Part shown: positions 2,999-35,886 of the stretch, piece by piece
Position numbering within the stretch: position 1 is the first letter of the stretch
Layout: every line of letters begins with the position of its first letter
IMG/VR virus record: IMGVR_UViG_3300037337_000202
Location: 1 to 52,642 of that record
Source of the DNA: a virus
Taxonomy: Duplodnaviria > Caudoviricetes
DNA: 52,642 nt
Direction: 5' to 3' (one strand)
Notes under the pieces: model-generated
What the model was told of the DNA's origin: nothing
The model's database searches: none
What the model saw: the letters and a program-made list of their open reading frames with translations, nothing else
Program-made: the position numbers and the translations under genes

Positions 2999-3580
2999 AT
3001 GATGCTTGATAACACTATTAAATCGCAACTAAAAACGTATCTAAAATTGCTTCGCCAACCAATTAAGCTGGTTGCATCCTCAAATGCGACCGTAGAAATG
3101 CTTGAGTTTCTAGACGATATTGCCAGCTTGTCTAATAAGATTACAGTTGAGAATTATTCCCAGGATAAAAGCCTGGCGTCATTTACGATCCAATCAGAGG
3201 CTGTAACATCGGGTGTTCGCTTTGCGGCACTTCCAGTAGGCCAACTTTTAACACCAATGATTTTGGCCATGCTTTGGACTGGTGGCCACCCGCCGGTATA
3301 TTCTGAAAAACTTATTCAGAATATTAAAGACATTAACCTAGACCACGACTTCGATATCTATGTCAGTCAATCCTGCCCAAATGGCCCAAGTGTAATCGAA
3401 GCGCTAGCCTTAATGTGTGTTTTAAATCCCAAGATTACAGTAACTGTAATCGATGGTGCATTATTCACAGAAGATATCGAATTCTTAGGTATCGAAGTTG
3501 TGCCTACAATCCATCATAACAACGACTTTTTTACCCAGGGGCGTATGACTCTAGAAGAAATTTTAGCCAAATTGAACTGA
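2999..3580 (+). CDS. ahpF: AhpF N-terminal double-thioredoxin domain, stand-alone (no flavoprotein part)
   Basis: MLDNTIKSQLKTYL, GVRFAALPVG, LAMLWTGGHP, IDGALF, FTQGRMTLEEILAKL. Confidence 0.85.
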   Translation: MMLDNTIKSQLKTYLKLLRQPIKLVASSNATVEMLEFLDDIASLSNKITVENYSQDKSLASFTIQSEAVTSGVRFAALPVGQLLTPMILAMLWTGGHPPVYSEKLIQNIKDINLDHDFDIYVSQSCPNGPSVIEALALMCVLNPKITVTVIDGALFTEDIEFLGIEVVPTIHHNNDFFTQGRMTLEEILAKLN

Positions 3581-7721: not shown

Positions 7722-7800
7722 GCGCGAGTATGCCGCTTGCCTTCTAAGCAAGAGAAAGCTAACTGGACTCATACAGGTTCGAATCCTGTCTCGCGCGCCA
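7722..7800 (+). tRNA. tRNA-Arg(TCT), D-arm-less, copy 2
   Basis: GCGCGAG/CTCGCGC acceptor; core nearly identical to 5673-5751; GCCA end. Confidence 0.75.
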
Positions 7801-14432: not shown

Positions 14433-14509
14433 CTCGCGTTAGCTCAGCTAGATAGAGCAAAATTCTCCTAAAGTTTAGGTCACTGGTGCAAATCCAGTAC
14501 GCGAGACCA
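14433..14509 (+). tRNA. tRNA-Arg(CCT)
   Basis: AAATT-CTCCTAA-AGTTT, canonical D arm, CCA. Confidence 0.9.
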
Positions 14510-33022: not shown

Positions 33023-33295
33023 ATGAGATTGCTAATCAATGAACCTATTCTACTGACATTAAATCTTCAGGGTGAAGAATGGTATGAGTTTTCTTGCATT
33101 CTTACCTTCTTTAGCATTCGTACAGCAGTCGAAGGTAGATTTTTTATTCTCCTAGCTCAAAAAATCAACTTGGACGAGATTAAGATTAATGAATTTCTTA
33201 GCTTCCTAGACAGTAGTGAATATGTCCTTTCATATGGCAATCTAGGTGGCGCTGGCTGTGAACTGTCACTGAATATGAGTAAACCACAACTATGA
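33023..33295 (+). CDS. hypothetical protein
   Basis: ORF. Confidence 0.45.
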   Translation: MRLLINEPILLTLNLQGEEWYEFSCILTFFSIRTAVEGRFFILLAQKINLDEIKINEFLSFLDSSEYVLSYGNLGGAGCELSLNMSKPQL

Positions 33296-33470
33296 TTGAC
33301 TATTTACTACTATTACTGTTTTTAGCCCTATTAGCCCTATTGATATGTGGTTTTCTATTGGTAATGTACAATTTAGACAATGAGTAAACCACAACCATGA
33401 TTGACTATTTACTACTATTACTGTTTTTAGCCCTAATGATATGTGGTTTTCTATTGGTAATGGATTCAGT
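33275..33470 (+). repeat. About 105-bp tandem duplication of a small membrane-protein start
   Basis: ATGAGTAAACCACAAC.ATGATTGACTATTTACTACTATTACTG at 33275 and 33380. Confidence 0.85.
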
Positions 33471-33572: not shown

Positions 33573-34229
33573 ATGAATAAAGAAGATTATAAAAAATATC
33601 CTAATCATTTTGTGGCTAGCGATATTCACTTCAATCACAAAAACATTCTAAAGTATAATGCTGCTAGTCGCGGTGATGGCCGCGACTATGATACTCTGAC
33701 TGAAGACGAGATTACAGACCTCGTCCACAAAATGAATGAGAAAATCATCGCCAACTGGAATTCTATGATTGGTCCAGATGATAACACATTTATCTTGGGT
33801 GATCTGTTCATGGGCCAAATGAAGTTTGCCGTAGATATCTTGAACCGAATGAATGGCTTCAAGTCGATTATTCTCGGTAACCATGATCGGGGACTAATGA
33901 AGTTGCCTGAGTTTCAAACCCGGGAAAGCAAACTGGCTATTAAAGTGTTGAGTACTCGGGACTATCTTTGCTTCTCACCCCGTAAGGGTGTTGGTATGGT
34001 ATTCAGCCACTTTCCGATGGCGAGTTGGGACGGCATGAGTAAAGCTGCCATACATTGTCACGGACATCTTCATGGGGCTCCAGTTCAAGTAATTGATGCT
34101 AAAAATAAACGTATTATGGATGTTGGCATTGATACTAATAATCTATTCCCATACCATATTGAAGAAGTTATCTCAAAAATGCAGAAGATCGAACTACCAA
34201 AACACGATCACCACATGAAGGAGCTCTGA
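33573..34229 (+). CDS. Calcineurin-like metallophosphoesterase
   Basis: SDIHF, LGD, GNHD, HFP, HGHLH. Confidence 0.9.
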   Translation: MNKEDYKKYPNHFVASDIHFNHKNILKYNAASRGDGRDYDTLTEDEITDLVHKMNEKIIANWNSMIGPDDNTFILGDLFMGQMKFAVDILNRMNGFKSIILGNHDRGLMKLPEFQTRESKLAIKVLSTRDYLCFSPRKGVGMVFSHFPMASWDGMSKAAIHCHGHLHGAPVQVIDAKNKRIMDVGIDTNNLFPYHIEEVISKMQKIELPKHDHHMKEL

Positions 34230-34570
34230 GAATGACTATCATACCACGCCCTACTTATGAAAATAATAAAACTTATCCTATTCTTGTTCGGTGTGGTGGA
34301 TATAACAAAATTGTAGAGATGCTCGGGATTCATGTCAATGCCTATAATCTAGCCTTAGCCACACAGTTAAGTATAAAAAATTCTAAACCATAGAAAGACC
34401 ATATTATGATAGTAGAACTTGAAACAGATAAAAGCGGCTCTTGTATTTTGCCGCATCTGCAAAACATGGTAAAAATTTTACTGTGATCATAGAAGAAACA
34501 CTCAAAATTTTAACAACTGTCGAAATATTAGAAGAATACTTAATAGGAAACATAAAATGGACAGAAAAAT

Positions 34571-35027
34571 ATGACTCAAAATACAAAGCAAAATATCTTA
34601 ACCCATAACAATCAGCTCATCCTGATAAGGGGGTTACCCAGGCAGTGGTAAATCCACATTAGCTCGTGATATAATGGGCTCACGAGAGCCTGGTACGGTA
34701 GCCTGGTTTGAGGCAGATCATTATTTTTATGATAAAGCCGGAAACTATAACTGGGATGGAATGAAGATTGGAAATGCACACTCCTGGTGTCAGAATTCAA
34801 CCTATGAAGCCTTTGAACAGGGTAAAACGGTTATCGTATCAAATACATTTACATTGAAACGAGAACTGAAACCATATTTTGGTATGATTCAGGATTATAA
34901 AAAGGATCCAACAGTTATCTGCCTACAATCTAATTGGGGCTCTATTCATGGTGTGCCCGATAATGTCCTAGCCAATATGAGCAAAAGATTTGAATTTGAC
35001 ATTGAAGATCTATTTTTAAAAAATTAA
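34571..35027 (+). CDS. P-loop kinase/ATPase with a +1 frame break in the Walker A motif
   Basis: LILIRGLP (frame 0) + GSGKSTLA (frame +1); EADHYF, AHSWCQ, VSNTF, SIHGVP. Confidence 0.8.
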
Positions 35028-35031
35028 TATA

Positions 35032-35886
35032 ATGAAACAATATCACGACGCCCTAAACCATATTCTAGAAACCGGTAAGAAAAAAGATGATCGTACCGGA
35101 GTAGGTACTCAGTCTGTTTTTGGTTATCAAATGCGCTTTGATTTACAAGAGGGATTTCCAGCAATTACAACCAAAAAACTTGCTTGGAAAAGTGTGGTTA
35201 GCGAACTATTGTGGTTTTTAGAGGGTAGTGGAGATGAACGCCGTCTTGCGAAAATCCTACATGGTACACGAGATTCTAGTAAATCAACTATTTGGACTGC
35301 TAATGCCGATGCCGAATATTGGAAACCAAAGGCCAAATTCGATGGTGATTTAGGTCGGGTTTACGGGGTTCAATGGAGGCATTGGCGCGCAACGGGTCAA
35401 TTAGACTCATTAAGGGAAATCGATCAATTATCTATTCTGATCGATGGGTTAAAAAATGATCCCAATAGCCGTAGGCATATTCTTAGTGCCTGGAATCCAG
35501 GTGAACTAGACCAAATGGCTTTACCCCCATGTCATATTCTAAGCCAATTTGATGTGACCGATGGCAAACTAAGTTGTCAATTATATCAGCGTAGCGCAGA
35601 TATGTTCCTAGGTGTCCCGTTCAACATTGCCAGTTATAGTTTACTGACACATATCATCGCCAAGGAATGTAATCTAGAGGTTGGTGAGTTTATCTGGGTC
35701 GGTGGTGATTGCCATATCTATAACAATCATATCGATGCAGTAAAGGAACAACTCGGCCGTGACTATCGAGCGCTACCTACATTAGGTATTACTGATAAGT
35801 TGTCATGGGATCAATACAGCTTGAATGATTTTACATTAGTAGGATATGATCCACACCCAGCCATCAAAGCACCAATGGCAGTATAA
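35032..35886 (+). CDS. thyA: Thymidylate synthase
   Basis: [37 protein letters not shown]. Confidence 0.97.

Follow-up and report, generated by a model that had tools for sequence, protein, structure and literature searches.

A candidate programmed +1 frameshift with a prfB-like Shine-Dalgarno element inside the Walker A loop of a phage P-loop kinase gene

Ribosomal +1 frameshifting stimulated by a Shine-Dalgarno (SD) sequence is, to our knowledge, known essentially from prfB alone, and +1 sites that depend on a hungry codon are known mainly from yeast. The two devices appear to be combined, inside a catalytic loop of a phage enzyme gene, in the DNA analyzed here: the IMG/VR viral contig IMGVR_UViG_3300037337_000202, a stretch of 52,642 bp estimated to represent 22% of its genome and referred to as the window at its full length. 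Judging from its sequence, a programmed +1 ribosomal frameshift at this locus is very probably needed to make a phage polynucleotide-kinase-like P-loop kinase.

SD-like sequences stimulate +1 shifts, with the 6+3+3+3+1 window constituting the FSscan architecture (PMC2790909), and SD pairing near the P site stimulates the shift in prfB, the gene of release factor 2 (RF2) (PMC5009743, PMC2790909). Bacteroidia ribosomes hide their anti-SD, yet prfB keeps its SD there and shifts at about 7% (PMC10798248). The CUU_AGG_C site of Ty1 shifts at about 40%, its AGG being read slowly and the decoder of GGC being abundant (PMC5009743). In Escherichia coli reporters, +1 shifting at CCC-A amounts to 1.5% in the wild type, 4.2% when tRNA-Pro(GGG) is lacking and 11.6% when m1G37 is lacking (PMC8324841). 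The Listeria phages PSA, A118 and A500 shift by +1 at CCC_UGA (tsh) and at ACA_CCC (cps) (PMC5009743). In-frame stop-hops have been demonstrated with synthetic constructs, and no natural ones were known as of 2016 (PMC5009743, Atkins et al.). A literature search on recoding at the site described here, whose coverage left out most subscription journals, returned no report of the cassette.

The original prediction, made from the letters of the window alone, had placed a prfB-like +1 frameshift cassette with an AGG codon in the A site at 34571-34680. Its description of the sequence, with a frame-0 stop and a +1 frame reading GSGKST and continuing to 35027, is exact, and the cassette that it proposed is supported by contig, statistical and comparative evidence. 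The elements of the site, with notes on a distant relative (contig L164), are the following.

34571..34651, + strand: ORF1 (open reading frame 1), the frame-0 leader, with its ATG at 34571 and 26 codons followed by the stop TAA at 34649-34651
34628..34633, + strand: internal SD-like hexamer AGGGGG, read as Arg-Gly codons, 3 nucleotides (nt) 5' of the shift codon
34634..34636, + strand: spacer and E-site codon TTA (Leu), all A/U, in the E-site slot of the FSscan 16-nt window, identical in L164
34637..34640, + strand: shift site CCC-A, with CCC (Pro23) at 34637-34639, A34640 as the base to be skipped, and CCA as the +1 codon
34640..34642, + strand: frame-0 A-site codon AGG, rare and 'hungry', overlapping the +1 codon GGC at 34641-34643, kept in L164
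34641..35027, + strand: ORF2, the kinase body in the +1 frame, beginning GSGKST and ending with the stop at 35025-35027
34441..34608, + strand: small upstream ORF of 55 amino acids (aa) from a TTG, in the third frame, its 3' end overlapping the first 38 nt of ORF1

A TAA at 34626-34628 closes the +1 frame, which is open from 34629 on and contains no ATG, GTG or TTG between 34629 and the ATG at 34674. A start codon that would include the P-loop in ORF2 is therefore lacking within 34629-34674, and ORF2 cannot be initiated with its P-loop. When CCCA (34637-34640) is read as one Pro with A34640 skipped, the two frames join into a 151-aa product, P0001, with the loop RGLPGSGKST. The beta-1 strand of this product and the front half of its Walker A loop come from ORF1, and the motif GxxxxGK[ST] that follows strand beta-1 is complete only in the trans-frame protein, being present in neither ORF1 nor ORF2 alone. 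The frame-0 stop TAA lies three codons beyond the A-site AGG. Counted up to the Arg codon from the in-frame ATG closest to it, the leader of ORF1 spans 19 codons, compared with a median of 7 in 70 intact homologues. Two other routes to the joined protein were rejected: a shift at GGG-G would yield RGYP, and Tyr occurs at that position in 0 of 73 homologues, while transcriptional slippage is ruled out by the shortness of the longest runs, only G5 and C3. A scan for promoters and terminators gave no signal above shuffled sequences.

The likeness to prfB resides in the G-rich SD-like hexamer placed 3 nt 5' of the shift codon (PMC5009743, PMC2790909), in a short frame-0 leader (the shift would occur at codon 23 in the kinase) with a functional protein obtainable only from shifted ribosomes, and in the absence of a competing SD just upstream. 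The two sites differ in the A site, which holds the sense codon AGG in the kinase gene and, in prfB, a UGA read by the gene's own product, so that an RF2-type autoregulatory loop has no place here. They differ further in the shift codon, which is CCC (CCT in L164) rather than the CUU of prfB, and in that the kinase is a phage gene broken inside its catalytic motif. With the CUU_AGG_C sites of Ty1 and ABP140, the locus shares AGG as the frame-0 A-site codon and GGC as the +1 codon, reading CCC_AGG_C at 34637-34643 and CCT_AGG_C in L164, and presumably the competition of a slow tRNA-Arg(CCU) with a well-supplied Gly decoder that PMC5009743 describes for Ty1. Unlike Ty1, the kinase cassette is of bacterial type, with an SD stimulator that is absent in eukaryotes, its P-site tRNA is Pro instead of Leu(UAG), and the phage brings its own tRNA-Arg(CCU). 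The Listeria phages likewise shift by +1 on a Pro codon beside a slow A site, and CCC is a minor codon in both cases. Their shifts, however, give C-terminally extended structural proteins in addition to a normal product, whereas the unshifted product of the kinase gene would be a 26-residue peptide and the shift would be needed for any enzyme at all; moreover, no SD stimulator is mentioned for the Listeria phage shifts in the accessible part of PMC5009743.

Within the window, the cassette is statistically singular. AGGGGG occurs three times on both strands against an expected 15.1 +/- 3.9, an approximately five-fold depletion, and its sole copy on the + strand is the one at 34628-34633. The predicted duplex of this copy with the anti-SD has an energy of -11.0 kcal/mol, and values of -11 or below are found at only four + strand places in 52.6 kb; two of the other three, at 1137 and 4661, have an ATG within about 10 nt downstream. 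Among 12,629 in-frame positions, a hexamer pairing 6/6 with the anti-SD in the FSscan register is found at 34628-34633 only. Relaxing the pairing to at least 5/6 together with a slippery P codon gives four sites, and only the kinase site among them has a rare A-site codon. AGG accounts for 10% of the Arg codons of the window (4.1 per 1000 codons), GGG and CCC account for 9% and 15% of their codon families, and GGC for 24% of the Gly codons. Upstream of starts, AGGA is found in 13 of 53 cases against 2.7 expected, an enrichment which indicates that the host uses SD sequences.

For comparison, 86 related loci were fetched, 80 from IMG/VR and 6 from metagenomes, at 36-65% identity. Arg-Gly is written AGG GGG in 0 of the 73 distinct intact homologues, with AGG used in 2 and GGG in 5 of them. 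The remark in the original prediction that R-G is conserved in this motif in any case consequently holds for the residues and fails for the codons.

The same frame break recurs in a distant relative. IMG/VR was scanned with a pattern consisting of R-G-x-P, one extra base and G-x-G-K-[ST]-T, with codons left free, and 52 contigs were retrieved; 51 were discarded as P-loop genes of other families lying in another frame, which leaves L164 as the sole contig of this general scan with a kinase of this family. Orthologues were where the original prediction would have looked for the same break with AGGGGG, and L164, at 46% identity between the joined proteins (E 5e-41), carries it together with the SD-like element, the spacer, AGG and the stop. 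Its leader (MNTNFLKSTSKNQFILV, 17 codons) ends in NQFILV and is followed by AGG GGG TTA CCT A GGC AGC GGT AAA; frame 0 continues with RQR and then TAA at the same place as in the window, and the +1 frame stays open through EAD, VVSNTFT and GSIHNVPD, with the family motifs intact. Between the window and L164, 26 of 28 cassette bases are identical although synonymous sites are saturated (proportion of synonymous differences, pS, 0.84). That L164 preserves the break together with two open frames, its hexamer and spacer, the AGG codon and the stop in frame 0 implies that the gene is not dead. Further scans added no member: one for the exact cassette with CCCAGG gave two matches, both unrelated, and one with AGG fixed and with TCN or ACN after K gave 90 matches, none of them a family kinase with a closed +1 frame.

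The small upstream ORF of the window is found only in contigs with a broken kinase and belongs to a conserved 5' module. Its homologue overlaps the leader in the same manner in L164 (43% identity over 51 aa, E 2e-8) and occurs at no other locus. In both contigs (window 34441-34608, L164:563-715) the ORF carries the motif K-W-x-E-x-Y...K-Y-L, and its end within the kinase leader makes some 38 nt serve two reading frames. The start of ORF1 is spanned by an imperfect direct repeat of 19 nt (window 34554-34596, 79%, spacing 24), a possible trace of the event that added 12 codons to the leader.

A sister cassette occupies the same position in other members of the family. The only one of the 86 fetched loci without a clean motif, L068, reads GTT AGG GGG GTT CCG TAA CCA GGG TCA GGT AAA, so that the loop encoded at 3043-3072 runs R G V P stop P G S G K, with the stop located at the same loop Pro codon as the shift site of the window. 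A scan with AGGGGG fixed retrieved 18 contigs, all of them family kinases, and a scan with the Arg and Gly codons free retrieved 39, of which 38 are family kinases with R-G-[VLI]-P-stop-P-G-x-G-K (L091-L114 and L116-L129, IMG/VR; e.g., L092:1104-1133), corresponding to 27 distinct sequences. The thirty-ninth, a GC-rich chance match with TGG, was set aside. Arg-Gly in the 27 stop forms always follows [AC]G[AG] GG[GA], namely AGG GGG in 12, AGA GGG in 9, AGG GGA in 4, CGG GGG in 1 and CGA GGG in 1, and the cassette stop is TGA in 15, TAA in 11 and TAG in 1. For take-off and for landing, all 27 use the Pro codons CCT, CCA or CCG, with CCC in 0 of 54 positions; CCC is the single Pro codon in 13 of the 73 intact genes. 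Reassignment of a stop codon in this clade is excluded, since all three stops are used and the cassette stop is the gene's own terminator codon in 18 of 26 genes. No suppressor tRNA was found near the stop cassettes, and L164 has no tRNA.

The ORF that follows the cassette stop is, on its substitution pattern, under purifying selection: the ratio of nonsynonymous to synonymous substitution rates (dN/dS) has a median of 0.16 and a maximum of 0.33 (103 of 148 pairs, at 60-97% identity, with measurable dS), and one pair retains 95% protein identity at a pS of 0.51. Between ATG and the Arg codon lie 16-19 codons in the 21 stop forms of the main clade that have an in-frame ATG; the corresponding values for the two +1 forms are 17 and 19. 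The main-clade leaders are conserved, with a Pro about nine residues before the Arg. Predicted anti-SD binding at the Arg-Gly codons has medians of -8.0 kcal/mol in stop forms, -11.0 in +1 forms and -3.5 in intact genes; values of -7 kcal/mol or below are reached in 24 of 29 recoded genes against 4 of 73 intact ones (Mann-Whitney p 6e-14, which is not a true probability since the rows are related). Five of the 27 stop forms belong to a second, very distant kinase clade, clade B, which has the same cassette with a Met just before the Arg and leaders of 20-65 codons counted from the first ATG. A search of GenBank phages with one ORF2 of the stop clade gave nothing above 49% identity, and no cultured carrier was found.

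These stop cassettes are probably natural stop-hops of 6 nt rather than sites of readthrough, a reading that draws on the loop sequence: a hop from the first to the second Pro codon would restore the invariant RG[VLI]PGxGK[ST], while readthrough would insert two residues. According to PMC5009743, the stop-hop constructs of Weiss et al. (1987) and T4 gene 60 resemble Pro-stop-Pro in that the A site holds a stop at take-off, the leader peptide is conserved and an SD-like element is nearby; T4 gene 60 skips 50 nt with the involvement of mRNA structures, whereas Pro-stop-Pro would skip 6 nt with a prfB-like SD 3 nt upstream. Two side observations concern this group. Members of clade B (L109, L118, L123, L124, L128, L129) encode proteins of 240-290 aa with ...IHSTDD...DNTN...NTH.VP and have Pro-TAA-Pro behind AGA GGG, and their kinase gene adjoins tRNA gene clusters in three loci. 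In the main clade, a conserved A/T-rich a-A-t-a-a-A-t-a-T-A-T-G, from the 60 nt upstream of the Arg codon, leads into the leader ATG and contains no SD, a hint that the hosts may initiate translation independently of SD sequences.

The +1 shift would proceed as follows. Translation would start at the ATG at 34571 and bring CCC (Pro23) into the P site, where AGGGGG, 3 nt upstream of CCC, could pair with the anti-SD of 16S rRNA, a weak UUA in the E site and a rare AGG in the A site assisting the shift. During the wait of AGG for tRNA-Arg(CCU), either the peptidyl-tRNA-Pro would move from CCC to CCA or a Gly-tRNA would read GGC out of frame, after which decoding would resume in the +1 frame and yield one 151-aa protein; ribosomes that fail to shift would stop three codons later and release a 26-residue peptide. 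Out-of-frame reading of GGC is an equally good description of the shift, given CCT in L164, whose P codon also means that perfect P-site re-pairing is not the conserved feature. The features common to the +1 and stop forms are an SD-like hexamer 3 nt from a Pro codon, a weak E codon, a slow A codon and a longer leader. The efficiency of the presumed shift may depend on AGG, and a higher output when AGG decoding is slow would follow by analogy from the Ty1 precedent.

An assembly or sequencing error, with a true DNA reading TTA CCA GGC in frame, is an alternative that we regard as negligible. The window is a metagenome-assembled fragment, and the comparison was made with contigs, not raw reads. 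Eight salt-lake metagenome runs contain the stretch, and contigs from an independent assembler (Logan) for four of them (X1, the likely source, X2, X3 and X4) were aligned to 34480-35040 at 80% likeness. Six of six pieces pass the break with 0 gaps, at depths of 4.7-29 and in three downstream haplotypes, so that the same base is present in the likely source run and in three others; the variant haplotypes of X3 (depth 29) and X4 (depth 16.6) also carry it. The four changes listed for X3 reproduce the protein P0123 exactly, and the 23 listed for X4 give a P0004-like protein. The protein collection holds five distinct ORF2 products of 117/118 aa from the same Met (P0122, which is the window's, P0123, P0124, P0004 and P0127), derived from contigs of 1 to 52 kb. 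In addition, the site is not a long homopolymer, and L164 carries the same extra base. Assembly error is excluded as far as contigs can show; at that level CCCA is upheld by the break in four runs with no indel, and this half of the simpler alternative offered by the original prediction falls away.

The other half, a real one-base insertion that inactivated the gene and left a recent pseudogene or a leaky mutant in an abundant salt-lake phage population, is improbable, though it draws on several of the observations that weigh against a programmed shift. In the R-G-L-P-G motif, CCA GGC with one duplicated C automatically gives CCC_AGG_C. The Walker A motif is uninterrupted in 85 of the 86 fetched loci (73 distinct and 12 repeats), so the family does not require recoding, and the closest proteins (P0002, P0128 and P0129, 88-91% identity) are intact, starting MTELILIRG with 12 leader residues fewer than the window, in a comparison made between proteins. 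The window clusters with the intact L003, L005 and L006 (support 96), apart from L164, when 102 proteins are placed in a tree. In the broken haplotype P0124, the invariant Asp49 is replaced by Asn, the window kinase has Phe at Leu81, a position conserved at >=90%, and 34493-34676 shows no listed substitution in any of the four runs, as in a young allele. The variant pieces include two to three further differences that were counted and not itemized, two of them near 34486-34490 as judged by the upstream-ORF variants P0131 and P0132, and contig-level support leaves room for minority intact alleles. The eight runs include no RNA run. The evidence of L164 comes from one contig, in which the +1 codon CUA re-pairs with the tRNA of CCT only through a G-U pair, and a phage-encoded tRNA-Arg(CCU) should make AGG less hungry and, if anything, lower the shift. 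Against the insertion, L164 keeps the break, hexamer, spacer, AGG, stop and leader, with ORF2 open and its motifs intact; AGGGGG is unique on the coding strand and missing from the 73 intact homologues; recoding goes together with the 12 additional leader codons in the +1 lineage as well as in the stop-cassette lineage; and the five to six broken haplotypes show no further lesions. Quadruplet decoding, in which CCCA (or CCUA) would be read as Pro by a tRNA-Pro of the phage or its host whose anticodon loop is expanded, is less probable again, at the level of a long shot. Reading of CCC-N by a SufB2-type tRNA-Pro is known, the window covers only about 22% of the genome and has many tRNA genes, several of them unusual in the anticodon loop, and the CCT-A of L164 lacks good +1 re-pairing. 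Neither contig, however, supplies the decoder: L164 contains no tRNA, and the tRNA-Pro(TGG) that the original prediction had reported in the window was not found, with no tRNA-Pro among the 18 tRNAs listed by ARAGORN or the extra Rfam hits. Decoders of both CCCA and CCUA would be needed, and the conserved SD-like hexamer at 3 nt and the conserved AGG would be left unexplained.

As to the history of the cassette, the protein tree calls for at least two origins or losses of the +1 form and at least two of the stop form, and with the window and L164 placed apart, the +1 form must have arisen on two occasions, been lost several times or been transferred by recombination. Mosaicism is seen downstream in the window haplotypes, where up to 21 differences fall within 129 nt, behind a 5' part free of listed changes between 34493 and 34676. 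Together with the intact alleles at 88-91% and the 5' module held in common with L164, this suggests that the upstream gene, the leader and the cassette form a module exchanged by recombination or easily gained and lost. Searches for nearer relatives were of limited yield: near and distant DNA searches of GenBank phages returned no relative of the kinase region and matched only thyA, tblastn against phages gave homologues at no more than 43% identity, and IMG/VR scans with P0001 and P0127 gave no match, the near records lying outside that collection. The metagenome scan contributed six loci, all distant and all intact, and the scan of genome contigs gave no match. The truncated forms P0005 and P0014 were not counted as further breaks, since P0014 is identical to a gene call made from an internal ATG, and the gene in question is intact in L003.

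A broader proposal would treat the Pro codon of the Walker A loop in this kinase family as a recoding hot spot with two interchangeable devices, a +1 shift at CCN_AGG_C (the window and L164) and a 6-nt hop at CCN-stop-CCN (the 38 contigs, whose stop-hops would be the first natural ones put to use), both driven by a prfB-like SD and a long leader and gating an RNA-repair kinase on A-site speed; we consider it speculative and rather unlikely. If it were true, the gates would be the supply of tRNA-Arg(CCU) in the +1 form and release factor in the hop form, production of the enzyme would follow a disturbance of translation by host defence or by phage take-over, and the phage tRNA-Arg(CCU) would serve as a timer for reducing the shift. 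Confirmation of the frameshift would provide a second natural family in which to study how an SD near the P site pushes the ribosome forward, along with candidate natural stop-hops, and would mean that a phage-encoded tRNA could tune the recoding of a phage gene. The locus is of high interest to the recoding field, chiefly through the family-wide pattern uncovered. Gene callers annotate these kinases as truncated 'hypothetical proteins', and the family is therefore systematically mis-annotated.

The joined product was characterized by profile, structural and contextual comparison. It matches Pfam AAA_33 with 34 bits (cutoff 27, E 4e-8) and phrog_2071 ('ATPase') with an E of 8e-34, compared with 4e-21 for ORF2 alone. 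An AlphaFold2 model built on an alignment of 74 relatives has a predicted local distance difference test score (pLDDT) of 90.5 and a predicted template modelling score (pTM) of 0.84. Its best Foldseek matches in the PDB are the kinase domain of T4 Pnk (1ly1, E 2.8e-6, TM 0.67), O-phosphoseryl-tRNA kinase (PSTK) and Clostridium thermocellum Pnkp; a sequence search of the PDB gave a sole match, RecA, which was judged spurious. On this model, the joined product is a T4 Pnk-like P-loop kinase and a predicted RNA/DNA-end kinase. Upstream of it lies a further gene of the same strand.

33573..34229, + strand: phosphoesterase, likely partner of the kinase, matching phrog_547 at 1e-45

The gene order is phosphoesterase, kinase and thymidylate synthase, and the flanking DNA fetched with the related loci includes a homologue of the phosphoesterase in 39 of 86 cases; for the loci from the stop-cassette scan the figure is 16 of 39. 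From fold and context, the phosphoesterase and the kinase likely form a split Pnkp-like end-healing pair.

ARAGORN lists 18 tRNA genes in the window, and the tRNA-Arg(CCT) named in the original prediction is among them, recovered by both ARAGORN and Rfam.

14433..14509, + strand: phage tRNA-Arg(CCU), decoder of AGG, from ARAGORN and with 57.3 bits in Rfam, with a cloverleaf and a CCU anticodon loop

This tRNA is a possible trans-acting modulator of the shift. Two Rfam tRNA matches not listed by ARAGORN lie at 2498-2568 (60.9 bits), with a UUU (Lys) anticodon loop, and at 7722-7797 (42.4 bits), with an odd fold and a UCU-like loop. A tRNA-like gene at 2579-2655 has an 8-bp acceptor stem, as in tRNA-His, and a GUG anticodon, in a loop of 6 nt according to ARAGORN, which labels it 'tRNA-???'. 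Finally, the region at 33275-33462 contains a tandem duplication (56 nt, 98%, spacing 105) in which a small ORF (MIDYLLLLLFLAL...) has its start and its N-terminal membrane segment repeated, with truncation of the first copy.

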